61,900 nt of DNA from an uncultured Clostridia bacterium (GCA_934281515.1 CAKQXG010000001.1:1-61900), one strand, 5' to 3'; positions 892 through 25,595 are shown, counted from the first letter of the stretch. Notes: generated by a model from the sequence alone, not told the origin. A program made the numbers and translations.

Positions 892-1476
892 TTATATTAT
901 CCTGTTACGTTCAGCTTTAATCTCCGCCGAAATATCGATGTCGCTTGCAGAGGGCAGCGATACGCCTGTAATTCTTGCGCGAGCGGCGTCCACCATCGGG
1001 CGAACGGCGTCGATTTCCGCCTGACTTCTTGCACGATTGGCAGGGTTGGACGTACGCAACGTATTGGACATTGCCTTTTGCGAGATTTGCAAACCACGCA
1101 TATATTTGGCAATTTTGACGTTGGCGCGTTGAATCTTGCGGATGTCGGGCATCTGGCTTTTCCCGTCAGCCATGCGGTCAAGCGCGTTGACTGCGGTAGC
1201 AAGGTTGATAGCAATTGCGTTAGACACGTTGATAATGTCAAAGTTCGCCTTGGCTTGCATAAGTCCGCTGATTACGTCGTTAAGTTGGATAAGCGCGCTG
1301 ATTGCCACATCGTATGTAGCGGTGTCGCCGTTATCCTCTGCCTCGGCGGCAATGGTAGCGTACTCTTCGCGCTTCTTTTTAAGTTCGTTTATCTGGTCGG
1401 CAAAAACCTGCATTTGTTCGTCGCGCTCCATTTGCGCCTGTATTTCCCTTTCTGCCTTGGACTTGAAGAATCCCAT
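892..1476 (-). CDS. 194-aa all-helical coiled-coil protein, ESCRT-III/Snf7/PspA-like (tentative)
   Basis: ORF track. N-terminus MGFFKSKAEREIQ resembles the MxxFGK-type ESCRT-III/PspA N-termini. It has long heptad-like helices (YDVAISALIQLNDVISGLMQAKANFDIINVSNAI; MPDIRKIQRANVKIAKYMRGLQISQKAMSNTL). Its length is about 200 aa. It is translationally coupled to the AAA ATPase. Confidence 0.5.
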   Translation of the reverse strand: MGFFKSKAEREIQAQMERDEQMQVFADQINELKKKREEYATIAAEAEDNGDTATYDVAISALIQLNDVISGLMQAKANFDIINVSNAIAINLATAVNALDRMADGKSQMPDIRKIQRANVKIAKYMRGLQISQKAMSNTLRTSNPANRARSQAEIDAVRPMVDAARARITGVSLPSASDIDISAEIKAERNRII

Positions 1477-1501
1477 TGTTTATTCCTCCGATATCTGGTT
1501 G

Positions 1502-2566
1502 TTATTTTTTATTGTTGGTTTTGGTTGCGGCAGGGTCTGCAACGTCGTCGGGAGTGTCAAGCGTGCGCTTGGTCGGCGGCGTAAGCGAAGCAATGTCGGC
1601 ATTGGTCTGGTTGCGTTCGCGTATTTTACGCATAAGCTCTTCCTTGTAAGCAAGCGCGTCTTGCGACACGGTTGTGCTTGTTCCCTGTTGCCCGAACACC
1701 TTCTGATCCATTGCGCCAACGCCCAATGCAATTTTTTCGATGTCTTTTTGCATCACTTTCAATATTGCAATTGCCTTGTCGGGTTCGGTTACGACGTTTT
1801 TAAGTTTGTCGATGTTAAGCAATGCTTTTGCCTTGCCGATCTCCGCAGGCGAGAAGAATGAGCTTTGCAATATCTCCGCAGCGTTGGCGTAAATCATATC
1901 CAACACGTTGAAGCAAGCCGAGTAGTTTTCGCGGCGCACGTTGAGATTGCCGATGATACTCTTTGCGGCGGATATTTTGCGGTACAACTCGTTGATCTGG
2001 CGTTCGTTGTCCTCTTTTACCATCATGTTTTCCAACTCGGCAAGATCGCGTTCCTTGGATTGAATATCCCTTTCAAGGCGGTTGTTTTGCCCTTCGAGAG
2101 CCGTTTTTATCGTATCAAGCTCGGCAAGGCGGTCAAACAAACGCTTTTGCGCGGCAGTTTTGCGTGCGGCTTGCTCGTTTTCTTCAAAACTGTCAAGCAA
2201 AGCCGTCGCGTCGGGATCGTTGCAGATTTCCGACAGCGTGTCGATGCAAAATTGCAAAGTGTCGGCGTTTTCTTCCAGACGACCCGAGTAAATTTGTCCG
2301 AGCGACTTTTTAAGCGCAACAACCGCTTCTGACGTACTTGCGCCGATTTTGCGCAAATCTTCGTCGCCCGTAAACAACAAACCTTCAACATCGCTGTAAG
2401 ACTTTTTGAGCATTTCCAACACCTTGTCGACGGTTTCCTTGTCGAGTTGCTTGTTATACTTGCCCTTTTCTATAAAAAACACAAGGGCATTAAGTTGTTT
2501 TTTCAGTTCTTCGCACTTTGCGTTGTTAGCCGTTGCGGACGGCACATATTTTTTTGCAAAACACAT
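1502..2566 (-). CDS. 354-aa coiled-coil protein of unknown function; its C-terminal half is possibly a second ESCRT-III/PspA-like helical hairpin
   Basis: ORF track. SD AAAGGAGAG sits 8 nt before the ATG at 2566. It has an extended heptad region (QNNRLERDIQSKERDLAELENMMVKEDNERQINELYRKISAAKSIIGNLNVRRENY...). The tail is T/P/D-rich (TPPTKRTLDTPDDVADPAATKTNNKK). Confidence 0.6.
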   Translation of the reverse strand: MCFAKKYVPSATANNAKCEELKKQLNALVFFIEKGKYNKQLDKETVDKVLEMLKKSYSDVEGLLFTGDEDLRKIGASTSEAVVALKKSLGQIYSGRLEENADTLQFCIDTLSEICNDPDATALLDSFEENEQAARKTAAQKRLFDRLAELDTIKTALEGQNNRLERDIQSKERDLAELENMMVKEDNERQINELYRKISAAKSIIGNLNVRRENYSACFNVLDMIYANAAEILQSSFFSPAEIGKAKALLNIDKLKNVVTEPDKAIAILKVMQKDIEKIALGVGAMDQKVFGQQGTSTTVSQDALAYKEELMRKIRERNQTNADIASLTPPTKRTLDTPDDVADPAATKTNNKK

Positions 2567-2605
2567 AGTTTTTACTCTCCTTTGTCGGCGTAATGGCGTT
2601 GTAAT

Positions 2606-4051
2606 TTACATCGTGTACAAACCGCGTTGTTTGAAAAACTCCAACGCGCTTGTCAGGTAGTCTTTGCGAGAGATGTTGTCGCGTTCGAATTGTTGTTCCA
2701 ACAGTTTGTTGTTTTCGTCGGATTTGTGACGAATACGATTGAGCGTTGTCCATATGTCGGAGGCGTGCTTGGCATCTTCCACCGACAAACCTGCCTTGAC
2801 AAAGCGCACAACGGGGAACATCTCCACCAGGCAAGGTTTGCCGTCGGCAGTCGTGCTGTACACGCGCGGTTGCAATACGCTTATCGAACCGTCCTTGTTG
2901 CGACGTTTAAGCAAGTTTCTGCCTTCGAACATTGTCGTTTCGGCGATGGCAAGATACTCGTCGTAATCGATAAGAAACTTTTGATCCTTGTGTTGCAAGC
3001 CAAACTTGTGTATAAGGTTGTCCTCGACATTGCTGTACAGCATTGCCGCAGGCGGAATAAGGTCGTCGTCGGTTTTGGCGTGAGCAATCAAAAACTCCGC
3101 CGTAACGTCAAGTGTGCGCAAGTGATCGGCTTTTGCCGCGTCTTGCAGGGGCAACGTTTCCTGTATGCGCTCGTCGATTTCCGACACGATGTTGCGACCG
3201 AACTCTTGCAATTGCGCCGTGAGTTGCGCTATCACCGCCGCAACGAGGTCGTTTTTAAGATTGCCGTTTTCCTCGGCAAAGCGACGATACATTTCTTCGC
3301 TGAAACGGATAATTTTACTACTGCCGTCGTTACCGCCGCCACTGTTGCCGTCATCGTCCTTGCGACCGGGGATTACGCCGCCGTTGTTGATGCGGTCACG
3401 TATGCGCTCAAGGTCCTCCTGATTGATGTGCATGCCGGCAACCACCACATTGTCAAGGCGTATGCCCATAGACGACAACGCCGAGTCCAACTTGAGTTGC
3501 GACTGGATTTCGGCACGGATTTCCGCCATGCGAGCAACCATTTCAAACACAGATACGTTGCTGTCGGCAAACTGTTTGGCAATGACAGGTGCGGCGTCAC
3601 CCTGAATGACGGACAATACGCGTTCATGCACGTCATCAAGCGTAACGTCCTCTCCGTATGGGAAGGCGTTGACCAACTTGACGTAGTCGCAAACAGTCGG
3701 CGTGTAGGTGCCGTTTGCGCCCACGCGGTAAGCTTCGTTAAGACGAGCGTTGTTTACATTGATGTTGCCTACGCCCCACTTGTCGGGAGCCAATGCCTTG
3801 GTGCGCACATATGCAACCTGCACAGTTTGTCCCGCGGCTTGTTTACCGACAAGAGCTAACAACTCCTGCCCGAGACCGCTTTCGCGACGCAACAGCGGCT
3901 TGCCGTTGATAAACACCACCGCCGTATACTGCGGCGGAACCTCCAACGTGGTACCGCGGTCGAGCACAAATTTGCCCGAGTAGGTAATGAGATTTCTCTC
4001 CGACGGATTATCCAGACGGATAAACGTCTTTTTGGGTCCAAACAAACTCAT
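2606..4051 (-). CDS. SPFH/band-7 family protein of the YdjI (COG4260) type with an extra C-terminal domain of about 235 aa of unknown function
   Basis: ORF track. N-terminal aa 1-220 follow the YdjI-like pattern: MSLFG..., LEVPPQYTAVVFINGK, KWGVGNINV, RVGANGTYTPTVCDYVKL, SMGIRLDNVVVAGMHINQEDLERI. A G/D/N/S linker covers aa 222-246. A separate domain runs to aa 481. Confidence 0.7.
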   Translation of the reverse strand: MSLFGPKKTFIRLDNPSERNLITYSGKFVLDRGTTLEVPPQYTAVVFINGKPLLRRESGLGQELLALVGKQAAGQTVQVAYVRTKALAPDKWGVGNINVNNARLNEAYRVGANGTYTPTVCDYVKLVNAFPYGEDVTLDDVHERVLSVIQGDAAPVIAKQFADSNVSVFEMVARMAEIRAEIQSQLKLDSALSSMGIRLDNVVVAGMHINQEDLERIRDRINNGGVIPGRKDDDGNSGGGNDGSSKIIRFSEEMYRRFAEENGNLKNDLVAAVIAQLTAQLQEFGRNIVSEIDERIQETLPLQDAAKADHLRTLDVTAEFLIAHAKTDDDLIPPAAMLYSNVEDNLIHKFGLQHKDQKFLIDYDEYLAIAETTMFEGRNLLKRRNKDGSISVLQPRVYSTTADGKPCLVEMFPVVRFVKAGLSVEDAKHASDIWTTLNRIRHKSDENNKLLEQQFERDNISRKDYLTSALEFFKQRGLYTM

Positions 4052-4810: not shown

Positions 4811-5356
4811 ATGCGTATATTCATTGCATTGAAACTACCCGACAAAACCGTCGAAAATCTTGCCCGTTCTGCCACCGACCTGAAACACTTTGACTGTGGC
4901 GGTAGTTTTGTGCCGTCGACCAATTACCACGTGACGTTGCACTTTTTGGGCGAGGTTGCCCCGAGCGACCTTATTTACGTACAAAAAGCGATGGACGAAG
5001 TTGCCAAATTACCTGCACCGACATTGGCAGTACATCAGATATGTACCCTGCGCGCGAGCGACATTGTTTGCGCCAAATTTCGCCCATGCAAGGAGTTGAC
5101 AACTCTGCATGAAACGTTGGGTGCCAAACTCGAAGAACAGCGCTTTACCGTGGAGCACCGCGCTTACCGTCCGCATGTGACAATGGTACGCAAATACAAG
5201 TTTACGTTGCCGTTCAGCGAAGTGAACAAGAGCGTAAAAGTGTACAATATGCCTTTTGTTGCCGACCAACTTGTACTGTACGCCAGCGATTTGCGCCGCG
5301 AAGGTGCCGTCTACACACCGCTGTACACGGTACAATTGCAAACAAACAACGATTAA
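4811..5356 (+). CDS. thpR: RNA 2',3'-cyclic phosphodiesterase (2H phosphoesterase, LigT/ThpR)
   Basis: Two HxT motifs are present (HVTLHFLGE and HVTMVRK). SD GAGGTG precedes the ATG at 4811. The ORF-track start at 4763 is judged too far upstream. Confidence 0.8.
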   Translation: MRIFIALKLPDKTVENLARSATDLKHFDCGGSFVPSTNYHVTLHFLGEVAPSDLIYVQKAMDEVAKLPAPTLAVHQICTLRASDIVCAKFRPCKELTTLHETLGAKLEEQRFTVEHRAYRPHVTMVRKYKFTLPFSEVNKSVKVYNMPFVADQLVLYASDLRREGAVYTPLYTVQLQTNND

Positions 5357-5474
5357 CTTATGCCCCTGTACATAAAATCCAAATACGTATGCAAAATTTT
5401 GTGACAGGCGAGCCGAATTCAAATATGCAAACATTACCCTTGCTAAACGAAAGACGACAAAGAAAGACATGTTA

Positions 5475-5529
5475 CAGTCTTACTTTGCCGTCTTTATTGT
5501 CCTCGCTTTCGAGATCTTTTATTGGCAAG
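5475..5529 (-). repeat. Copy 4 (terminal, 5'-block only) of the toxin-cassette junction repeat
   Basis: cagtcttactttgccgtctttattgtcctcgctttcgagatctttt matches the blocks at 6368-6424, 7297-7352 and 8087-8130. Confidence 0.85.
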
Positions 5530-5539
5530 AATATTTAAT

Positions 5540-6031
5540 TTATTCTTTTATTACAGTAAAAGTGCTCCCATTCAAGCCTTCTATTACTATCTTGCGATCA
5601 CTTGATTTTTGAAATTTAAGTAGTCGTCCTAAAAAATCCACCACTGAGTCGGAATCTCCGCCAACTTCTACTTCTTCATTTATAGCCGAAAAACCAACGT
5701 CGAACTTTTTATCCTTAAAATGCCTTCCGTAAAGATACGTTTCCATAGCGTTGTTTAATACTTCGTAATCTCTCCTACCGTAGTAAAAACACAGCAATTG
5801 ATCCGACTCGTCTGAGAAATTAAACTCAACAAGGCAAAAGTTTTCACTTTCCCAATTGAGAACATACCTTTTCAAATTGAACATAACGATGCCGACAAAT
5901 GCCTTTATTTCATCTTCATTGCATCTCATTTCAGCGTGCCGACCACTGCCGCCAAGTACTATACTACTGTATTTTTCATCAAAATACTTGTTCTCAATTT
6001 CTTGCCAAAACTTTTCGTCTATTTCTTGCAT
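5540..6031 (-). CDS. putative immunity protein (163 aa) for the upstream orphan toxin module
   Basis: ORF track. It has its own SD (GGAGAAAATAAG before the ATG). It lies directly downstream of the toxin C-terminal module, is AT-rich, and shows no recognisable motif. Confidence 0.5.
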   Translation of the reverse strand: MQEIDEKFWQEIENKYFDEKYSSIVLGGSGRHAEMRCNEDEIKAFVGIVMFNLKRYVLNWESENFCLVEFNFSDESDQLLCFYYGRRDYEVLNNAMETYLYGRHFKDKKFDVGFSAINEEVEVGGDSDSVVDFLGRLLKFQKSSDRKIVIEGLNGSTFTVIKE

Positions 6032-6096
6032 CTTATTTTCTCCATAAAATATGTATTATTCATATTCGATCTTCATTTTGTTCCAAACGGCTGTTC

Positions 6097-6366
6097 CTAT
6101 ATTTGCAAATTAATGTAAAAGCCATTACTGATAAGATGAGGGTCGGTCAAATCAATATCAAATCCCCCGTACACATCCATGGTAAATTCTTTTGCATCAT
6201 CAAATGATTCAAAACGTAATTCATACTCATATTTGCACTTATTATGCACCAATACTTTGTCGCCAGACACATAATACGTGTGGAAGTCTTCAACTTCGAA
6301 GTTGTAGGTTATTTGCGGAACACAAAGCTTGTTGATACGAATTTCATCCCAACAGCAAAACCTATT
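6097..6366 (-). pseudogene. orphan polymorphic-toxin module: Hint C-terminal segment plus a short C-terminal domain, with no start codon
   Basis: Own translation: ...WDEIRINKLCVPQITYNFEVEDFHTYYVSGDKVLVHNKCKYEYELRFESFDDAKEFTMDVYGGFDIDLTDPHLISNGFYINLQI*. The open frame is bounded upstream by TGA at 6367-6369. Confidence 0.6.
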
Positions 6367-6424
6367 TCAGTCTTACTTTGCCGTCTTTATTGTCCTCGCT
6401 TTCGGGATCTTTTCTTGGCAAAAA
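6242..6424 (-). repeat. Copy 3 of the toxin-cassette junction repeat (about 183 bp)
   Basis: Near-identical to 7171-7352. It encodes the Hint C-terminus ending VLVHN. Confidence 0.9.
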
Positions 6425-6437
6425 CATTTTTCTTTTT

Positions 6438-6893
6438 CTATTTCCTTACAAGATATGCTTTGTTAAATTCCAGTGTTCCTTGATTGTATCTTCTTAAAAA
6501 ATTTTTCAACGATATAGTGCCTTCAATACTATTATCTTTCGAATTGCCCGTGCGCGTTAACCAATAAATAGTCTTTATTGGTGAACTGTTTATAAAAGTA
6601 CACAATAACCTTTCCATTTCGCAGACTGATATTCTTTCGCTCAAAATTTTATACCGATTTCGCACTACAGCCAAATCAAATATTCCATTTTCATAGTCAT
6701 ATTCTCCATCTTCTGTTACAGGAAAAAGATCATAATCAACACTTGCGAAAGAACTAATAACACTCCAACTTTCTCCGTAATAATAGGATATAGATTTTTT
6801 TCTTTCACATTTGATAAATGAAATAGGTACATCAATAGCCGTATCGGATTTTTGTTTTAACACACCAATATGCCAATCCGCAATAATACTCAC
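6438..6893 (-). CDS. putative immunity protein (151 aa)
   Basis: ORF track. GTG start with SD GGGAGG. It begins 7 nt after the toxin-module stop (TAG at 6900-6902). Confidence 0.5.
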   Translation of the reverse strand: MSIIADWHIGVLKQKSDTAIDVPISFIKCERKKSISYYYGESWSVISSFASVDYDLFPVTEDGEYDYENGIFDLAVVRNRYKILSERISVCEMERLLCTFINSSPIKTIYWLTRTGNSKDNSIEGTISLKNFLRRYNQGTLEFNKAYLVRK

Positions 6894-6899
6894 TTTTAT

Positions 6900-7295
6900 C
6901 TATCCTCCCAAACCTAACGATTGAATTACATCTACTATATTTAGACCAGTAATTTGAAACCCTTTTGAAAAGGACGAGCCCTTAGCCCCCTGATAAGCAA
7001 TATCACCAATAGAATTCAATAATATATCTGGATTGCTGCCAACATTATAGTTTGGCTTCACTTGAGCTATAATTTTCCTCTTAACTTTTCCATGAAAATC
7101 CTCGACTGTTATTCCATATTTATCAGCGATTTTTTCTGGCGAATATAATTTATAATCTTTTTTGCATATATTATGCACCAGCACCATTTCGTCGGTGACA
7201 TAGTATGTGTGGAAGTCTTCAACTTCGAAGTTGTAGGTTATTTGCGGAACACGAAGCTTGTGAATACAGATTTCGTTCCAACAACAAAACCTGTT
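6900..7295 (-). pseudogene. orphan polymorphic-toxin module: Hint C-terminal segment plus a C-terminal domain of about 90 aa of unknown type
   Basis: Own translation: WNEICIHKLRVPQITYNFEVEDFHTYYVTDEMVLVHNICKKDYKLYSPEKIADKYGITVEDFHGKVKRKII...SLGLGG*. The open frame is bounded upstream by TGA at 7296-7298. The only internal Met is at 7187 (the ORF-track ORF). Confidence 0.6.
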
Positions 7296-7352
7296 TCAGT
7301 CTTACTTTACCGGCCTTATTATCCTCGCTTTCGGGATCTTTTCTTGGCAAAA
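7171..7352 (-). repeat. Copy 2 of the toxin-cassette junction repeat
   Basis: Aligns base-for-base with 6242-6424 with few substitutions. Confidence 0.9.
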
Positions 7353-7367
7353 TAACGAATATTTATT

Positions 7368-7673
7368 TTAAAACACACGCCAAAACGCAAAAACACTCAT
7401 AGAAACTTCTGCTATGGCAAATTTTTTACCAGAGTTTGTCTCCCTCACGTGTAAAAGTTGCAATTGATTATACCTCAAGTCGTATCCATAGCAAAATTCA
7501 TTTCGACTTTTAGAAAATGAAGTGTTTTCTCCATCTATGAAAAATGAATCATTGTGACTTTCACCTAAAAAAACGGTATTGTACGCAACAAAGATTTCAT
7601 CAAAATCATTCATAAGTCCAAGACCCGTTTCCATCAAAACTTTTGCTCTTTTTCTTTCCAAGTCGTTTTGCAT
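7368..7673 (-). CDS. putative immunity protein (101 aa)
   Basis: ORF track. SD GGGAGAG. It starts 10 nt after the stop of the TNT-like module. Confidence 0.5.
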   Translation of the reverse strand: MQNDLERKRAKVLMETGLGLMNDFDEIFVAYNTVFLGESHNDSFFIDGENTSFSKSRNEFCYGYDLRYNQLQLLHVRETNSGKKFAIAEVSMSVFAFWRVF

Positions 7674-7683
7674 TTAACTCTCC

Positions 7684-7995
7684 CTAGAATATTAAATAGC
7701 CTAGTATCTTCAACTCATTTATTGAGTTCGGTAACATGTATTGCAAGCCACCGCCAACGCCATTCCATGGTACCCATGGAGCCACTATTGATTTAACAAC
7801 ATTGGGAATCGGCTTTATAACTATTATTTCAGTATATACGCCGCTATTCCACGGAGGCAAAGATAGTTCCACCATACTTGCCCCGGCATTTGTAATATAA
7901 TTACTATTTACGCCTATTTCACCATATCATCCATATGTCCCCGATTGCAAAGTTATAGTTTCTTCTGTTCCAACTACAGCACCATTATTGAGAGG
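7684..7995 (-). pseudogene. TNT-like (NAD+ glycohydrolase, DUF4237-type) toxin C-terminal domain, interrupted by an in-frame TGA
   Basis: Own translation: PLNNGAVVGTEETITLQSGTYG*YGEIGVNSNYITNAGASMVELSLPPWNSGVY...IVAPWVPWNGVGGGLQYMLPNSINELKILGYLIF*. The APW..GGGxQY.LP....L...GYL tail matches my recollection of the TNT-domain C-terminus. The TGA is at 7927-7929. Confidence 0.5.
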
Positions 7996-8002
7996 GTACA
8001 AA

Positions 8003-8130
8003 TTCAAAGTTGTACGTTATCTGCGAAACAAGAAGCTTCTGTATACAGATTTCGTTCCAACAGCAAGACTTATTTCAGTCTTACTTTGCCAGCTTTACTG
8101 TCCTCGCTTTCGGGATCTTTTCTTGGCAAA
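8003..8130 (-). repeat. Copy 1 (degraded) of the toxin-cassette junction repeat
   Basis: It has the same 5' block. The Hint part has decayed (ITYNFEFVPSQ*). Confidence 0.8.
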
Positions 8131-8175
8131 GTACTCAAAATTCAATTAGTCTATTAAGTTATTATAGTAATATTT

Positions 8176-8430
8176 TTATTCAACGATATGTTCTTTCTTC
8201 TGTTTATCATACATTACACATAATACTTTGCTTATGACATCATCTGCTTTTTTACCAGTCGAATCAATATCCCCCGTTTTTCTATCATAACCGATTAAAC
8301 TTCCAAGTAAAATAGTTAACTTCCACAATTCATCAACCGACATCAGTAGAACATCTTGCTCGGTCAACACTTTACTTGTGTAAACCTGATTTATCAACTG
8401 TAAGTCCATTTGGCTAAATTTTGCTTTCAT
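8176..8430 (-). CDS. putative immunity protein (84 aa from the Met preceded by GGAGG)
   Basis: ORF track lists 8176-8463. SD GGAGGAAAAG lies directly before the ATG at 8428-8430. That ATG overlaps the stop of the upstream toxin fragment (ATGA). Confidence 0.5.
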   Translation of the reverse strand: MKAKFSQMDLQLINQVYTSKVLTEQDVLLMSVDELWKLTILLGSLIGYDRKTGDIDSTGKKADDVISKVLCVMYDKQKKEHIVE

Positions 8431-8648
8431 CTTTTCCTCCAATACATTGAGCCTTTGGACCAAGTTGTGACAATCTGTCCTTGGGAACTTAAAACGACAA
8501 CTGATTTTTTTTCGGTAAACTTAAAAGTATCATATATAACACTTTCCGAATTCTTAAATGCATCGAGTATTCCTTGGGGTGAGCCCCCAGTATAAGGTTG
8601 CCATAGGCAACAATATTCTTCATGGATTTCTTTCTTTTTAATTTTATT
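8427..8648 (-). pseudogene. orphan toxin C-terminal fragment, possibly a DUF4258-like RNase-type domain, with no start codon
   Basis: The frame is not in the ORF track. Own translation: NKIKKKEIHEEYCCLWQPYTGGSPQGILDAFKNSESVIYDTFKFTEKKSVVVLSSQGQIVTTWSKGSMYWRKR*. The family call is a weak pattern match. Confidence 0.35.
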
Positions 8649-9048
8649 TCAAAAGTATTATTACATAAGACATGCGTTTTGTCAATAGCAAAATTTGTAA
8701 AACAAAAATGAAACACTGAAGTACGCCGTGTTTTACTATCAATTTATCAATCTACAATGAGCAAATATTTGATCAACGGAAAAAATTCGACTTTTTTCGA
8801 CAATGGGCAATTTTTTGCAATTACGAATAGTACTTGTTTGGTGCATTTTGCACCAGTTTTAATTGCATAAATATTTCAAAATATCGTTTTTTGACATTAT
8901 TTGTTAATATTTGTTGATCTTTTTTCAAATATGTATTGCATTTTTTAATGCATTGTGATACAATAGGTGTCAATTACCGCCCGGCTGAAAAAAAGCTGAA
9001 ACTTTAGCCAAAATATTAAGACGGCAAAATATCAAAGAAGGTGGAAAA

Positions 9049-9537
9049 ATGGATACTATTCAAACTACCACCGATCACGTATCGGTAGACTGCGCCACTG
9101 TCAGACGTAGAGTAAAAGGGCTGTTGTTGAAACTTAACTTCCGTAGCAAGCTTGTAGGTACACTTTACCTGGAAGAAGCTTTGCTTATCAAACTGCTTTG
9201 TCCCAAACAATACGTCAAAGTGATGGAACTGTATGCGGCTATTGCCAAGTACCACGGGACAAAACCAAGCAACGTAGAGCGCGCAATTCGCAACACTATT
9301 GCCGACTGCCACAACAACAAATCATTGCAGAAAATCAACGAAGAACTAGGTTGCAACATCTACGACCCGCATTATCCACCGACGAACAGCGACTTTATTA
9401 CAGAAGTCGCAATAAGAATACAATACTTAAACCAAGAAACTGCAGCACACGAAGCCGACTTCGCAGCACATGCCCAACAATTTGCACAATCATCTCACGG
9501 CACACACATCCGCGAAGCCATACATAGTCAATGGTAA
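9049..9537 (+). CDS. stand-alone Spo0A C-terminal (DNA-binding) domain protein
   Basis: KPSNVERAIRNTIADCH and PTNSDFITEVAIRI match the Spo0A_C signature (ERAIRHAI...PTNSEFI). There is no receiver domain. SD is AAGGTGG. Confidence 0.7.
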   Translation: MDTIQTTTDHVSVDCATVRRRVKGLLLKLNFRSKLVGTLYLEEALLIKLLCPKQYVKVMELYAAIAKYHGTKPSNVERAIRNTIADCHNNKSLQKINEELGCNIYDPHYPPTNSDFITEVAIRIQYLNQETAAHEADFAAHAQQFAQSSHGTHIREAIHSQW

Positions 9538-9626: not shown

Positions 9627-9647
9627 TGGCGGAAGCGAAAGGATTTG
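9627..9647 (-). repeat. duplicate of the 3' end of tRNA-Ser (att-like direct repeat)
   Basis: tggcggaagcgaaaggatttg matches 10621-10641 tggcggaagcgaagggattcg at 19 of 21 positions, including a 13-nt exact run. The remaining sequence does not fold as a tRNA. Confidence 0.7.
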
Positions 9648-10620: not shown

Positions 10621-10712
10621 TGGCGGAAGCGAAGGGATTCGAACCCTTGTACCGCTTGAGGCGGTAACCGCATTTCGAGTGCGGGCCGTTATGACCACTT
10701 CGATACGCTTCC
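10621..10712 (-). tRNA. tRNA-Ser (anticodon CGA), class II with a long variable arm and encoded CCA
   Basis: Hand-folded. Acceptor GGAAGCG/CGCTTCC. Anticodon stem CCGCA/TGCGG with loop CU-CGA-AA. Variable arm ACCGC/GCGGT. T arm AAGGG-TTCGAAT-CCCTT. Discriminator G then CCA. Confidence 0.9.
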
Positions 10713-21257: not shown

Positions 21258-21953
21258 TTACCTGTAATACTCGCTCATGGCAATAAGAAAATCTTTTCGC
21301 TTCCGTCGGGAGATTTCCAACTGTTCGCCACCGACAACTATAAAATTATCCCGTACTTCGGCGACATGTTTAAGGTTGACTATCGCGTAGCGCGTGCAAC
21401 GGAAAAAATGATGGTTCTGAAGTTCTTTTTCGCGGTTTTGCAGAGAGTTCAGCTCGGAGTAGTTGCCCTCGGACGTGTGATAAACAAGGTAGTGACCGCG
21501 CACTTCGACAAAGTACAGGTCGTTTAGCGACAGCCGCTTGATACCGTCATCCACTTTGATACTGATACAATACCCTTTTGATTTGACGCGCTCGCAAACC
21601 TTGTCCATTTGTATTGCAAGCGCAGGGTAATCGACGGGTTTGACCATGTAACCCATGGCGTCTACGGCGTACCCTTTGACGGCATACTGCACCATGTTGG
21701 TGACAAATACAAGGCACACGTCCTTGTCAAGTTCGCGCAGGCGCACCGCGCCGTCGTAACCGTTCATCAGCGGCATTTCGATGTCCATCAGCACAAGATC
21801 GTACTTTGGCGCGTAGTCGCTGACAAAATTCATAGCGTCGGAAAAAGGGAAATAAGCAATCTGTTTGTTGCGTTCCTTTGCATATCGGTCAAGATAACTT
21901 TCGAGCAGTTTGACGACGTTCGGTTCGTCTTCGACAATGGCAACGTTTATCAC
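21258..21953 (-). CDS. LytR/AlgR (LytTR) family response regulator
   Basis: The receiver domain shows INVAIVEDEP...DLVLMDIEMP. The LytTR domain shows YFVEVRGHYLVYHT...RCTRYAIVNLKHV. The start is set at GTG 21953, preceded by GGAGG. Confidence 0.85.
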   Translation of the reverse strand: MINVAIVEDEPNVVKLLESYLDRYAKERNKQIAYFPFSDAMNFVSDYAPKYDLVLMDIEMPLMNGYDGAVRLRELDKDVCLVFVTNMVQYAVKGYAVDAMGYMVKPVDYPALAIQMDKVCERVKSKGYCISIKVDDGIKRLSLNDLYFVEVRGHYLVYHTSEGNYSELNSLQNREKELQNHHFFRCTRYAIVNLKHVAEVRDNFIVVGGEQLEISRRKRKDFLIAMSEYYR

Positions 21954-22150
21954 CGGGCACCTCCGAGTGTGTAAGACTTTTATTAAATGTAGCACAAAAA
22001 TCCTCGCATTTCAAGAGTTTTTCGATATTTGTGCAAACAAAATATTTCGGCAAGCTTTACACAGACACACACATTTACCCACAACAATATGCCACAAAAA
22101 ACTAGTTGAGAATACACGCTCTACGCCACGACAAACGTCCGATTGCATGC

Positions 22151-22180
22151 AAAAAGGCAACCACACAGGGTTGCCTTTTG
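22151..22180 (-). terminator. rho-independent terminator
   Basis: AAAAGGCAACC-acacag-GGTTGCCTTTT. It is flanked by A and T runs, so it is potentially bidirectional. Confidence 0.65.
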
Positions 22181-22260
22181 ATGTAAAAATTTGTATACGT
22201 ACTAAAATTTTGCCGACATTCAGCCGTTTGCAAAACCGATTTTAACGACTTTTCAGGCGA

Positions 22261-23028
22261 TTAACCGTTGACTGCTTCGCCGTCGTTTGCAACTACTGCT
22301 TCGGCTTGAGCAACGTTCTCTTTTACCACGATTTCGCCGTTTTCGTCAAACTCAGGATAGTTGCCGTCGGGATAAGCAAGATTCAGATACAAGTTGGCGT
22401 CCGCCGTACCCATGTAAGGGATGACGTAGATAGCCAGGATGCCGCCCGTAAGACCGACAAGAATAATCCAACCGAGAAAACTCAGTTTAAGACCGATGAT
22501 TTTCCAAAAATGACCCTTGGTCACGTTCCACGATTGTTTAAGACAGTCGATTGCAGACAGACTGACATTGTGATTCATTACATAAAACGCCATGGACAGG
22601 CGAACGTTAATCCAGATATTAACGCATATTGCGGCAAGCGCAATTAAGAAAAGTCCGATAGCAGCAAAATCACCCACATGTCCGCCGCAAATACCGACGT
22701 AAATCAGTAGCAAAATGCCGCCTGCCAACACAATCGCCAAGTTTACAAGAACAAGCAACAGAGTTGCGACAAACGCACGCATAAATTGACGGAAACCGCG
22801 GAAAGTGGAATCTACGCCGCGATAGTTGCCACCCATGGCAATGTCGATGTAAAACGCATTGTAGCAGCACATCACGGCACCGACAACGACAATTGCGCCC
22901 AAGCCGAGACCGGCAATACCCTAGCCGACAAGTATCAGGTTGAGCAAAATTGTAGTCAGTATGGCGTAGCCGTACTTGTTTTTCATATCCGCACGAGATT
23001 TTGCGCGGATTTCTTTGTTACTTAACAT
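22261..23028 (-). pseudogene. DUF975-family membrane protein interrupted by a single in-frame TAG
   Basis: ORFs 22921-23166 and 22261-22902 are in the same frame. Own translation reads ...NKYGYAILTTILLNLILVG*GIAGLGLGAIVVVGAVMCCY... with the TAG at 22921-22923. The likely start is MLSNKEIRAK at 23028, after AGGAGGAAG. Confidence 0.7.
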
Positions 23029-23178
23029 TTTTCTTCCTCCTGAATGAGTTGAATACATTGTACCACTTTGTTCAGACAGTGTCAATAGGGATAAACCATT
23101 TAGTGCTCGCAACGTGTTGCAAATTATCGGTACCCTTCGGTACGTCTGCCACCATGTCGGGTTCAAGCACCGTGTTGC

Positions 23179-24264
23179 TTATCCGAACAGAATAAAGTCG
23201 CCGTCTTTGCCGACTTCTATCGTGCCTATACGCTTGTCCAATCCCACCAATCTGGCAGGGTTGATGGTCCACAACTTGATTGCCTTGTGCAACGGAATGT
23301 TACAGAACGTCACGACGTTTGCCAAGCCCTCGTATGCGTCAAGGATACTGCCTGCGCGGTTGTTTGTACCCGTGACAAAAGCGTCGCCGTGTTGTACCGT
23401 AACTTGTTGTTTGCCCAGCGTGTAGTTGCCGTCGGGCATGCCTGCCGCCATCATACTGTCGGTGATACCGATTACCTTATCTGTGCCCTTGGTGTCGACA
23501 AGCAGGCGCAACACATCGCGGTCAACATGCTTGCCGTCGCAGATAACTTCGCTGTAAGCGTTGGTTGCCAATGCCGAACCCATCATGTTGAGATCGAGTC
23601 TGTCCATCTGCGACATGGCATTGCCCCAGTGTGTGAAGCTACGCGCACCTGCTTCCAACGCCGCGCGCACCTGCTTACCGTTTGCCGCGCTGTGACCGAG
23701 ACTGACTACAATGCCGTTCGCCTCCGCTTCGGCGATAAACTCGCATGCATTGGGCAGTTCGGGCGCAACCGTTACCAACTTGATAAACCCTTTTGCCGCG
23801 CGTTGATATGTCAGGAACTTTTCGTAAGACGGTGTTTGCAAACACTCCACGGGCATTGCGCCGTGCTTTGCCGCCGACAGAAACGGTCCTTCCAGGTTGA
23901 TTCCCTTCACTTCGGGGTACTCTTTAGCAAGCTCGCAAATGCGCTCCGCCTGACGACAAATAACTTCGTCGGTGTCGGTCATGATTGTCGGCAACACCGT
24001 GCCCACGCCGTGAGCAATGTAAAACTCCATTATCTTCTTCATGCCGTCAAGATCGGCGGTGTTGAAGTCATAGCCGATGGCGCCGTGAGTGTGTATGTCC
24101 ACAAGAGCAGGCAAGATGTACTTGTTGGTGCAATCCACCACTTCGGTTTGATCGTCGGCAACGATTTCGGGAGCAATCTCGATGATTTTGCCATGGTTTA
24201 CCACTATGTCCGTCCGCACGAGTTTGTCTCCGATAAGTGCGGAACCGTTTCTGTACAATGTCAT
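23179..24264 (-). CDS. nagA: N-acetylglucosamine-6-phosphate deacetylase
   Basis: DIHTHGAIGYDF, an amidohydrolase fold pattern. The start is set at MTLYRNG after GGAGAAAG. Confidence 0.8.
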   Translation of the reverse strand: MTLYRNGSALIGDKLVRTDIVVNHGKIIEIAPEIVADDQTEVVDCTNKYILPALVDIHTHGAIGYDFNTADLDGMKKIMEFYIAHGVGTVLPTIMTDTDEVICRQAERICELAKEYPEVKGINLEGPFLSAAKHGAMPVECLQTPSYEKFLTYQRAAKGFIKLVTVAPELPNACEFIAEAEANGIVVSLGHSAANGKQVRAALEAGARSFTHWGNAMSQMDRLDLNMMGSALATNAYSEVICDGKHVDRDVLRLLVDTKGTDKVIGITDSMMAAGMPDGNYTLGKQQVTVQHGDAFVTGTNNRAGSILDAYEGLANVVTFCNIPLHKAIKLWTINPARLVGLDKRIGTIEVGKDGDFILFG

Positions 24265-24404
24265 AAAAATCTTTCTCCGTATGTATTTTTTTGTGCAAAT
24301 TGCCTTTATTGACGGTGCATGACGGTGCAAAATCAACGTAGCGCAGCCGACAAAAGTAATGATTTGTTGTGTGTTTTGTCATTACGACAAGGCTTTACAC
24401 GACG

Positions 24405-25595
24405 TCAGTTTTCGTCCGACGTGTACTCGCACGACTGCCTGTCGATGGTAGCAACAACAAATACATTGTCGTGCAATTTGCTTACTTCGTCCTGCAGATA
24501 CTGCGCTAACTCGGCGTCGGACATCTTGCAGTCAAATGTGATTGCCACGTCAAAAATCAGATTGGTACGCTGCGGTCCCTTGACCATGCGGAAGTCATGC
24601 ACTCCGTAGCGCGGATCTAATTCGTGTACGATTTGGCGCACTTCCTCCTTGTACTTGTCAAGAACAGGGTCGCCGATGACAATCGGATCCATATGGATCA
24701 CAAGAGTAATATTGGTATGTTCGGCAAAGTCGCGCTCGATACGGTCAATCATCTCGTGACTTTCCATCACGTCTACAGAGGCGTCCACTTCCACATGCAC
24801 GCTGGCGTAGTACTTGTTGGGTCCGTAGTTGTGTACTTCCAGGTCGTGGATACCCTTGACCCCGTCAAAACTGACAATACGTTTGTAAATCTGTTCTATA
24901 AGTTCCTTGTCGGGAGCCTCGCCGAGCAGGCGACTCATCGTCTCGCGCAGTATGCCTACGCCGGCAATGCCGATAAGTACCGCAACAGCCAAGCCGACAA
25001 TACCGTCAAGATACACAAAACCTGTGTATTTGGTGACAATAACCGATACCAAAACACCGGAAGTGGCACATACGTCGGAAATGCTGTCCGTTGCCGTGGC
25101 GGCAAGCAAATCGCTTTTGTACGTGCGTGAAAGGCGTTTGTTAAATACAAACATCCACAACTTGACCAGTATCGAAAAGCCTAGTACTCCAACAGTCCAC
25201 AAGCTGTATTCCGCCGCCTGCGGAGTGACGATTTTGCCTATACTTTCCGAGACAAGTTCGATGGCAAGCACCACCACAATCACGCCGACAATCAATGCCG
25301 AAACATACTCTATGCGTTGGTGACCGTAAGGGTGGTTCTTGTCAGCCTTTTTACCTGCCAGACGAAAGCTGACAAGGGAAATGACGTTGCTACCACAGTC
25401 GGTAAGGTTGTTGAGTCCGTCGGCAAGGGCAGACACTACTCCGAACAACAGTCCGACGGCAATTTTGCTTACCGACAGCAGTATGTTTAACACAATACCG
25501 ACAATGCCGCTAAGCTTGCCTACCTGTTGCCGTACCGCTTCGTTGTCGGTGTCGGCGTAGTTGCGGACAAAAGTTTTAAGTAAAAGATTAGTCAT
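24405..25595 (-). CDS. cation diffusion facilitator (CDF) family metal transporter
   Basis: LNNLTDCGSNVISLVSFRLAGKKADKNHPYGHQRIEY, six TM segments, and a C-terminal cytoplasmic domain. The start at 25595 is inferred. Confidence 0.75.
   Translation of the reverse strand: MTNLLLKTFVRNYADTDNEAVRQQVGKLSGIVGIVLNILLSVSKIAVGLLFGVVSALADGLNNLTDCGSNVISLVSFRLAGKKADKNHPYGHQRIEYVSALIVGVIVVVLAIELVSESIGKIVTPQAAEYSLWTVGVLGFSILVKLWMFVFNKRLSRTYKSDLLAATATDSISDVCATSGVLVSVIVTKYTGFVYLDGIVGLAVAVLIGIAGVGILRETMSRLLGEAPDKELIEQIYKRIVSFDGVKGIHDLEVHNYGPNKYYASVHVEVDASVDVMESHEMIDRIERDFAEHTNITLVIHMDPIVIGDPVLDKYKEEVRQIVHELDPRYGVHDFRMVKGPQRTNLIFDVAITFDCKMSDAELAQYLQDEVSKLHDNVFVVATIDRQSCEYTSDEN

Follow-up and report, generated by a model that had tools for sequence, protein, structure and literature searches.

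A probable remnant of Rhs/PT-HINT toxin loci, kept as an immunity array, and its genus-restricted structured element in an uncultured Clostridia bacterium

Overview

The minus strand of a 61.9-kb contig from an uncultured Clostridia bacterium (contig C1, analysed over its full length of 61,900 nt and referred to hereafter as the window) carries, between positions 5442 and 8685, four cassettes, each pairing the C-terminal tip (CT) of a polymorphic toxin with a candidate immunity gene (imm). We consider it likely, with a probability of roughly 0.7, that this region is the eroded remnant of the Rhs/PT-HINT toxin loci that typify the genus, and that it has been kept as a four-gene immunity array. 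A preliminary description of the window, made from its sequence alone, had offered two options, an immunity-only arsenal retained after loss of the toxin or a reservoir for a toxin encoded elsewhere; the former fits best, as two of the tips, TNT and CT4, are demonstrably dead and all four immunity genes are intact. A parentless array of orphan tips and immunity genes is in itself ordinary and belongs to a known class; the novelty resides in a lineage-specific leader element of ~85 nt.

The window is one contig of a draft metagenome-assembled genome (MAG; G000) of 2.05 Mb, in 193 contigs, 85% complete and with a GC content of 48.7%. Congeneric and order-level genomes are denoted G0xx, and loci or contigs of relatives L0xx. 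Pfam gathering scores were applied for PT-HINT (PF07591; 27.7 bits) and TNT (PF14021; 27 bits).

Organization of the array

PT-HINT is a Hint domain situated between the delivery part of a toxin and its variable tip; it ends in TYNFEVEDFHTYYV...VLVHN, and the tip follows. The array has a GC content of 0.32-0.37, against ~0.50 in both flanks, and contains two repeat families, one of 207 nt in three copies and the other of 89 nt in four, neither of which has a copy elsewhere in the 2.05-Mb assembly. The junction repeat is a composite of two parts. The 3' part codes for the final ~32 residues of PT-HINT, and the 5' part is the ~85-nt non-coding element, which comprises a head, a short hairpin (P1), a long hairpin and a U-tract. 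The components of the array, in minus-strand order, are as follows (SD, Shine-Dalgarno sequence):

8657-8685, minus strand: sigma-70-type promoter-like site (TTGACA-17 nt-TG-AATAAT, 11/12), the best of 18 matches in the region
8427-8648, minus strand: CT4 remnant; homologous to intact Hint-CT4 cassettes only from 8582 on
8176-8430, minus strand: imm4, intact 84-aa candidate immunity gene; GGAGGA SD, start and CT4 stop overlapping (ATGA)
8051-8129, minus strand: element copy 4, truncated, 46.1 bits
7684-8050, minus strand: module 3, Hint-end remnant and TNT tip (TNT-family NAD+ glycohydrolase, PF14021); pseudogene
7368-7673, minus strand: imm3, intact 101-aa candidate immunity gene for the TNT tip
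7278-7350, minus strand: element copy 3, truncated like copy 4, 43.6 bits
6900-7295, minus strand: module 2, last ~32 PT-HINT codons and an intact 89-aa CT2 tip
6438-6893, minus strand: imm2, intact 151-aa candidate immunity gene; GTG start, GGAGGA SD
6343-6421, minus strand: element copy 2, truncated, 54.2 bits; right-hand boundary of the block common to L087 and L088
6097-6366, minus strand: module 1, PT-HINT end and a 47-aa tail (CT1)
5540-6031, minus strand: imm1, intact 163-aa candidate immunity gene
5442-5528, minus strand: element copy 1, complete with head, P1, full long hairpin and TTTCGTTT tail; 79.6 bits, E 2.5e-17

The observations of the preliminary description hold, with small corrections. 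The four CT/immunity pairs (8427-8648/8176-8430, 7684-7995/7368-7673, 6900-7295/6438-6893 and 6097-6366/5540-6031), the SD sequences and the drop in GC are all present. Its claim that the toxin modules lack start codons is correct for the module heads, although in-frame internal ATG or GTG codons occur in three of the modules; similarly, of the three junctions said to end in ITYNFEVEDFHTYYV...VLVHN only two are intact, the third having decayed to ITYNFEFVPSQ*. The junction repeat had been taken as a whole for a Hint/pre-toxin junction, which is true of its 3' part, whereas the 5' half constitutes a separate, genus-specific family of structured non-coding sequence; the Hint end is not the sole cassette boundary, as the element marks one too. 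Finally, what had been regarded as a 'fifth, partial' repeat copy at the end of the array lacks only the Hint part, and is in fact the sole complete copy of the element (79.6 bits, versus 44-54 bits for the internal copies).

The immunity genes start anywhere from a 4-nt overlap with the toxin stop codon to 65 nt past it, and are preceded by SD-like GGAGG, GGGAG or GGAGA sequences. The PT-HINT stubs of modules 1 and 2 cover profile positions 105-136/137 and score 24.4 and 25.3 bits, falling below the cutoff because only a stub of the domain is left; with nothing beyond these positions remaining, the Hint domain cannot function in the window. Full PT-HINT domains do occur in relatives (99.5 bits).

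Toxin tips and candidate immunity genes

The CT4 remnant is without its whole Hint domain and the first ~33 of 86 tip residues (including ITGYTQHGLERAMGRDG). At the amino acid level, it is 72% identical to its counterparts in L070 and L072, the former of which has CT4 in frame behind a Hint domain, and 47% identical to an orphan in G020; the corresponding values for imm4 are 86-87% for the genes behind CT4 in L070 and L072, and 42% for the G020 counterpart. The CT4 tip family (L070 3-563; L025 5146-5613; window 8427-8582) is characterized by YTQHGLE..R..G...I and a C-terminal ...VVVL...G.IVTTW. Presumably, these motifs resemble those of DUF4258/BrnT-like RNase toxins, although this is a lead only, and the G020 orphan has no Pfam match.

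The tip of module 3 is recognizable as TNT (37.7 bits, E 2.8e-9, positions 15-85/88). Over module 3 and imm3, the window is 98% identical to contig L058, in which both the Hint end and TNT are intact; by comparison, the window has suffered a ~69-nt deletion across the Hint end (about 8003) and a CGA to TGA change at 7927-7929, such that no intact reading frame joins the TNT tip to a delivery part. The product of imm3 is 97% identical to that of the gene behind the intact TNT tip of L058, and 49-51% identical to those behind the TNT orphans of G020, G017 and L083.

CT2, in module 2, is 81% identical to the C-terminus of a 1752-aa Rhs/PT-HINT toxin in L085 and 88% identical to P0152. Its family comprises about 25 representative clusters, always directly after the VHN-C of the Hint domain, and every residue of the invariant pattern FH..K...G.NPD...T is retained in the window. 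No Pfam match was obtained for CT2, either with single sequences or with alignment members, and no PDB match by sequence or profile; an AlphaFold model of the tip (10-residue block mean pLDDT 59-93) gave a best E of about 2 in a Foldseek search of the PDB. The partner gene, imm2, matches its counterpart behind the full-length CT2 toxin of L085 at 94% identity and those of L087 and L088 at 98-99%; it has just one other cluster among 5.8 billion proteins. CT1 has no homologue beyond its Hint stub, and module 1 is probably another remnant. The adjoining imm1 is 85-86% identical to genes in the immunity-only strings of L069, L079 and L088; here, the gene recurs on its own, without CT1.

Three of the tip-gene pairs thus recur elsewhere, namely CT2-imm2 (L085, L087 and L088), TNT-imm3 (L058, G020, G017 and L083) and CT4-imm4 (L070, L072 and G020), which bears out the view that these are orphan polymorphic-toxin tips with cognate immunity genes. 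The CT2 toxin tip and the four immunity proteins represent unannotated families.

A structured element at the cassette boundaries

The element is a structured, strand-specific and genus-restricted unit of ~85 nt. It consists of the head (GCCAAGAAAAG), the P1 hairpin (UCCCG-AAAG-CG-N-GGA), the long hairpin, in which the base (AAAGACGGCA/UGCCGUCUUU) is conserved in sequence and the distal part is variable, and the U-tract. Stretches of 112 nt containing a complete element fold at roughly -26 to -45 kcal/mol, the one containing copy 1 at -35 kcal/mol. RNAalifold applied to 14 complete copies recovered both helices with compensatory changes, and a covariance model built from the same copies gave 65 matches in the compared loci. 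Across 58 distinct element sequences, in an alignment that was fitted to the model and thereby favours structure, 93.7% of cells are paired as against ~46% with slid partners, and there are 10 covarying pairs; none of 500 shuffles reached the observed values. Moreover, G·U pairs are frequent, and these would be A·C mismatches on the opposite strand; the structure is, therefore, strand-specific, as expected for RNA.

In its distribution, the element is confined to one lineage. A DNA search of congeneric genomes located some 45 nt of the repeat's 5' half, with identities of 82-100%, in a third of them, frequently at multiple sites within a genome; the cassettes themselves show no such recurrence. 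Of 47 genomes of the genus, 12 contain the head pattern, as against none of roughly 390 genomes from the other sampled genera of the order; among 185,579 species genomes, it occurs only in gut MAGs labelled Christensenellaceae or Clostridia. A phage origin was rejected, as 2.9 million viral contigs yielded no copy. The Rfam covariance models match neither the window element nor the complete copies on L022 and L024 at E <= 1. A search of metagenomes with an exact 32-mer from the Hint-C junction likewise gave no match. We consider the structured element to be a candidate new cis-regulatory RNA and, judging by sequence comparison, a previously undescribed, lineage-specific leader.

Two other interpretations of the element were entertained. 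Variation between copies of the head first looked codon-like in the Hint frame (QEK[I/F/L]PKART[I/V]KTA); a coding function was rejected because two stop codons separate the head from the Hint stub in all four window copies, because the element precedes unrelated genes in non-coding contexts, and because its helices covary. Nor is a miniature inverted-repeat transposable element or transposon end favoured: no terminal inverted repeats were seen, and the context is gene-specific.

The element in intact loci of relatives

Complete copies, with hairpin and U-tract, are followed after 20-40 nt, and in some cases after about 100 nt, by one of three features: the SD of a collagen-repeat tail-fibre-like gene (PHROG tail fiber, E 1e-18), a holin-like gene (phrog_6918, E 1e-7; borderline for Pfam Phage_holin_6_1), or the start of an RHS-repeat toxin of ~1,500-1,750 aa. 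On the other side, at every examined locus with an element-headed full-length Rhs operon, an open reading frame (ORF) of ~55 aa encoding a CxxC...CxxC zinc ribbon ends 3-35 nt before the element. These ORFs match phrog_6417, a 'translational regulator' (E 5e-6 and 2.5e-5); Pfam returned generic zinc ribbons only, and no Com family up to E 10. All seven strong matches in the genus lie in element-positive genomes, six of them immediately upstream of the element. In intact loci, the element occupies the place of a leader/terminator, with a Com-like zinc-ribbon gene before it and the toxin operon behind.

This arrangement recalls the com-mom operon of phage Mu, in which Com binds a short hairpin beside a larger inhibitory hairpin on the mRNA of its own operon (PMC6483171). 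In the loci of relatives, too, a ~55-aa CxxC...CxxC gene lies directly upstream of a short hairpin, followed by a larger hairpin and then the putatively regulated genes, and by analogy the zinc-ribbon protein may act on the element. There are, however, clear differences: the Mu recognition motif in the hairpin loop, CC(N)2-3GAG (PMC6483171), is not conserved, P1 reading UCCCG-AAAG-CG(A/C)GGA; where Mu has a start-codon trap, the large hairpin here is a terminator; the zinc-ribbon ORF has no Pfam Com match; the downstream genes are those for tail fibre, holin and Rhs toxin; and no such regulator is found in the genome under study. It is, at best, a tentative proposal that the element is the RNA target of the Com-like protein, the two forming a post-transcriptional switch that would control a phage-derived operon encoding tail fibre, holin and Rhs toxin, with the hairpin doubling as a deletion anchor. 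Such a switch might operate through antitermination or translational unmasking, and deletions at the terminator hairpin might then turn regulated toxin operons stepwise into constitutively co-transcribed immunity arrays. A candidate cis-regulatory RNA with a Com-like partner would thereby be placed ahead of Rhs toxin operons in an uncultured Gram-positive gut lineage.

The full-length Rhs toxins of the genus (L024, L022, L025 and L085) have no obvious signal peptide by eye, and their operons carry collagen-repeat tail-fibre-like and holin-like proteins. This combination suggests that a Gram-positive Rhs toxin may be released by a phage-derived, holin-dependent route, at which the adjoining holin and tail-fibre genes hint.

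A more prosaic account would make the element a passive passenger: a conserved 3' untranslated region or terminator of the upstream unit, be it the Com-like or an immunity gene, that has no regulatory role, the orphans having arisen by classical C-terminal displacement. Arrays formed by displacement are well documented (PMC5361080, PMC3150448); moreover, the element does hold a strong terminator-type hairpin, and in most copies it begins 3-60 nt after the upstream stop codon. Nevertheless, we regard this as unlikely. In G012, the closest species, the upstream gene has a terminator of its own and the element lies between this and the next SD, which favours assigning it to the downstream genes, and its distance to the downstream start is short and regular. 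Additionally, the head and P1 are 90-100% conserved across species with LigT proteins only 52-76% identical to that of the genome studied here, and P1 shows compensatory changes.

A graded series of truncated toxin genes

The element bit scores are bimodal, with complete copies at 65-96 and fused copies at 44-60. In the fused copies the head, P1 and the 5' arm are retained, but the basal 3' arm or the U-tract is missing, and at the hairpin base the sequence passes directly into a 5'-truncated toxin gene; within the array, copy 4 exemplifies this, with head, P1, 5' arm and a weak distal hairpin kept and a Hint fragment replacing the basal 3' arm and U-tract. A few orphan fusions start right after an intact hairpin and U-tract instead (L073, L084 and G031). 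On this one anchor there are at least eight junction classes, in which the toxin genes are cut at different depths (TM, transmembrane):

YD repeats: L050
Rhs core end: L046/L060; L073/L084; G031
TM linker: L063/L082/L085
G-rich TM stretch: G033
just before the Hint N-terminal Cys: L064/L069/L072/L080
Hint C-terminus: the window, L058

Beyond these, strings of immunity genes without any toxin remnant occur in L069, L079 and L088. The graded truncations can be read as a 5' erosion series, progressing from YD repeats to core end, TM linker, Hint start, Hint end, partial tip and, finally, immunity genes only, for which deletion from the leader terminator into the toxin gene would be the simplest mechanism. 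Anchored on a single structured element, such a series would offer a concrete and testable route from weapon to shield in gut Clostridia.

We envisage that toxin operons, each with a leader element at its head, would first pile up in tandem. Deletions extending from the leader terminator hairpin into the toxin gene would then remove the delivery part together with the U-tract, and the downstream immunity gene would thus become attached to the upstream transcription unit. Cassettes could be swapped or added by homologous recombination at the Hint end and the element arms. In the window, the outcome would be one operon that starts at the promoter-like site (8685-8657), crosses three element copies that do not terminate transcription and ends at the complete hairpin (5528-5442), and that confers immunity against toxins fired by relatives. 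The promoter-like site is just upstream of the truncated first cassette, in a ~200-nt spacer that has no homologue in relatives, and is a candidate for the promoter of the whole array; copy 1, facing the convergent gene for a LigT-like protein, is a candidate for its terminator. As the three internal copies are without a U-tract, a single immunity operon, with read-through at these copies and termination at 5442-5528, would be the economical interpretation.

Several observations weigh against this scenario. A simple terminator scan did not call the hairpin at 5442-5528. The deletion model alone leaves the constant retention of the head and P1 unexplained; selection on RNA function, or a hairpin-stimulated deletion hotspot, could be the cause. 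The intact CT2 tip would also suit a silent reservoir. Profile searches, which the preliminary description had proposed for both modules and immunity proteins, identified TNT in module 3 and the PT-HINT stubs in modules 1 and 2, but the four candidate immunity proteins match no described Imm family (Pfam, PHROG); it is their conserved pairing and position that point to an immunity role. Lastly, in a draft of 193 contigs at 85% completeness, the parent toxin could sit in the missing part or in a collapsed repeat.

Parent toxins and cassette exchange

No full-length toxin of the same family lies upstream of or adjacent to the array, as the preliminary description had stated, and a search of the whole assembly for the junction repeat and PT-HINT was also without a parent. 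The arrangement missing here is present in metagenomic contig L085, which carries, in order, a zinc-ribbon gene, the element, a holin-like gene, a 1752-aa toxin composed of Rhs, TM linker, PT-HINT and CT2, imm2, and an element-orphan fusion. This toxin is the full-length parent type of cassette 2, in a related organism, and it shows that Hint-containing full-length toxins do exist in relatives.

Cassettes are shuffled between strains, as is seen in L087 and L088, which share window positions 7238-6363 at 96.5% nucleotide identity and have no homology outside this block. One edge is in the TYNFEVED-coding stretch of the Hint end, and the other is inside the element after imm2, where homology ends at 6363; the exchanged unit is therefore delimited by the Hint end on one side and by the element on the other, which supports the recombination idea of the preliminary description and gives it a second arm. 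The L088 version of cassette 2 has kept its Hint domain whole and comes after imm1, whereas in the window this order is reversed.

These observations bear on the possibility that the array is a silent reservoir, in which spare tips recombine, through ~100 nt of Hint-C homology, with a full-length Rhs/PT-HINT toxin in the unassembled part of the genome. Orphan Rhs tips are indeed expressed after recombination in Salmonella (PMC3967940), homology between strains demonstrably ends in the Hint-C coding stretch, CT2 retains all of the invariant residues of its family, and the incompleteness of the draft would leave room for such a toxin. The odds are, even so, distinctly against it. In relatives, every examined full-length operon is headed by the element, either directly or via tail-fibre and holin genes, yet none of the following is present in the 2.05 Mb of this assembly: a second junction repeat, another copy of the element, a complete PT-HINT, an Rhs of the relatives' type, a Com-like gene, or tail-fibre or holin partners. 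Moreover, of the four tips no fewer than two are dead and another measures just 47 aa, and a second array in the same genome is likewise parentless.

This second array lies on contig C9 (about 21870-25415, minus strand; loci L029 and L030) and comprises two Rhs core-end fragments (YYDPETCRFVNAD...NPVMGVDPEGT) with different C-terminal tips and small downstream ORFs, at a GC content of 0.35-0.46. It is located between efp-like (elongation factor P) and spoIIIAA-like genes, both named by eye, and has no element copy.

Comparison with known systems

The array shares several features with the orphan rhs-CT/rhsI and cdiA-CT/cdiI arrays (PMC3150448; PMC3967940): these also contain 5'-truncated toxin fragments with a conserved pre-toxin piece, each followed by its own immunity gene, are AT-rich and strain-variable, and undergo exchange through homologous recombination in the conserved stretch. 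It differs from them in that there is no full-length gene upstream or elsewhere in the assembly, in that the conserved stretch is the PT-HINT end rather than the Rhs core, and in having a second arm, the structured non-coding element at the other boundary, to which the beheaded toxin is joined.

Immunity arrays that arose by sequential displacement or by recombination between tandem paralogues, in which rows of immunity genes keep a record of earlier toxin types and repeated segments recombine to alter the content, are also known from Vibrio cholerae (PMC5361080) and from type VII secretion (T7SS) loci of firmicutes (PMC9484751). In contrast to these, the segment that is repeated here consists in part of a leader/terminator RNA element, on which a graded series of 5'-eroded toxin remnants is anchored. 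The rAID-1 clusters of the Bacteroidales (10.1101/471110) similarly consolidate orphan immunity genes without cognate toxins in the gut microbiome, and have the low GC, co-directional genes and repetitive intergenic sequences encountered in the window. By analogy, the array may work like the orphan-immunity islands of other phyla (AID/rAID-1, V. cholerae and T7SS strings). However, rAID-1 clusters are defined by a 5' XerD-like recombinase (10.1101/471110), and contig C1 has neither this nor any other integrase; additionally, the array is in Clostridia, is directed against Rhs/PT-HINT toxins rather than type VI secretion effectors, and still contains toxin fragments.

The same absence speaks against an integron-like or rAID-like system, in which the element would be an attC-like recombination hairpin where a site-specific recombinase inserts toxin/immunity cassettes: this idea could draw on the conserved structured repeat at every cassette boundary, the co-directional, low-GC genes, the recurrence of junctions at the hairpin base with many partners, and the resemblance to rAID-1 in GC and intergenic repeats, but we hold it to be highly improbable, because searches with PF00589 and PF00239 found no tyrosine or serine recombinase on the 61.9-kb contig, and because the partner breakpoints fall at arbitrary depths within the toxin genes with no second site, the element also lies 20-40 nt before the SD of ordinary tail-fibre and holin genes and 3-35 nt behind the Com-like gene, and its G·U pairs make the structure strand-specific.

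Flanking genes and minor observations

The array is bounded by two genes on the opposite strand:

4811-5356, plus strand: LigT-like 2'-5' RNA ligase gene, core to the genus and convergent with the array
9049-9537, plus strand: stand-alone Spo0A_C-domain gene (Pfam E 1.1e-18), divergent from the array

In a synteny comparison, the LigT-like gene is core to the genus, and the neighbours beyond it differ even in the closest species. Beside the array, there is a tRNA-Ser(cga) on the minus strand (window 9627-9647 and 10621-10712): its 3'-terminal 21 nt are repeated (19/21) ~1 kb away, and the two 3'-end repeats bracket a methyltransferase gene, resembling an att-like scar right next to the array. 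Bracketing of the array itself by att sites was considered and rejected, as the tRNA-Ser 3' end recurs only at 9627 and has no copy beyond the array.

The related human-gut contig L088 encodes, just upstream of its string of immunity genes (1087-3246), a 719-aa protein with TIR_2, LRR and TPR regions. In the NCBI taxonomy, the genus of a sister MAG, Candidatus Fimimonas gallinarum (taxid 2840648), is filed under Myxococcota; this placement is wrong, as the genome has Spo0A_C and spoIIIAA-like genes and its relatives are labelled Christensenellaceae or Clostridia. Finally, the region 5' of the stand-alone Spo0A_C gene (8778-9056) has ~70%-identical copies at C27:2339-2624 and C127:1193-1362, suggesting that receiver-less Spo0A_C paralogues with a common 5' region may form a small family.

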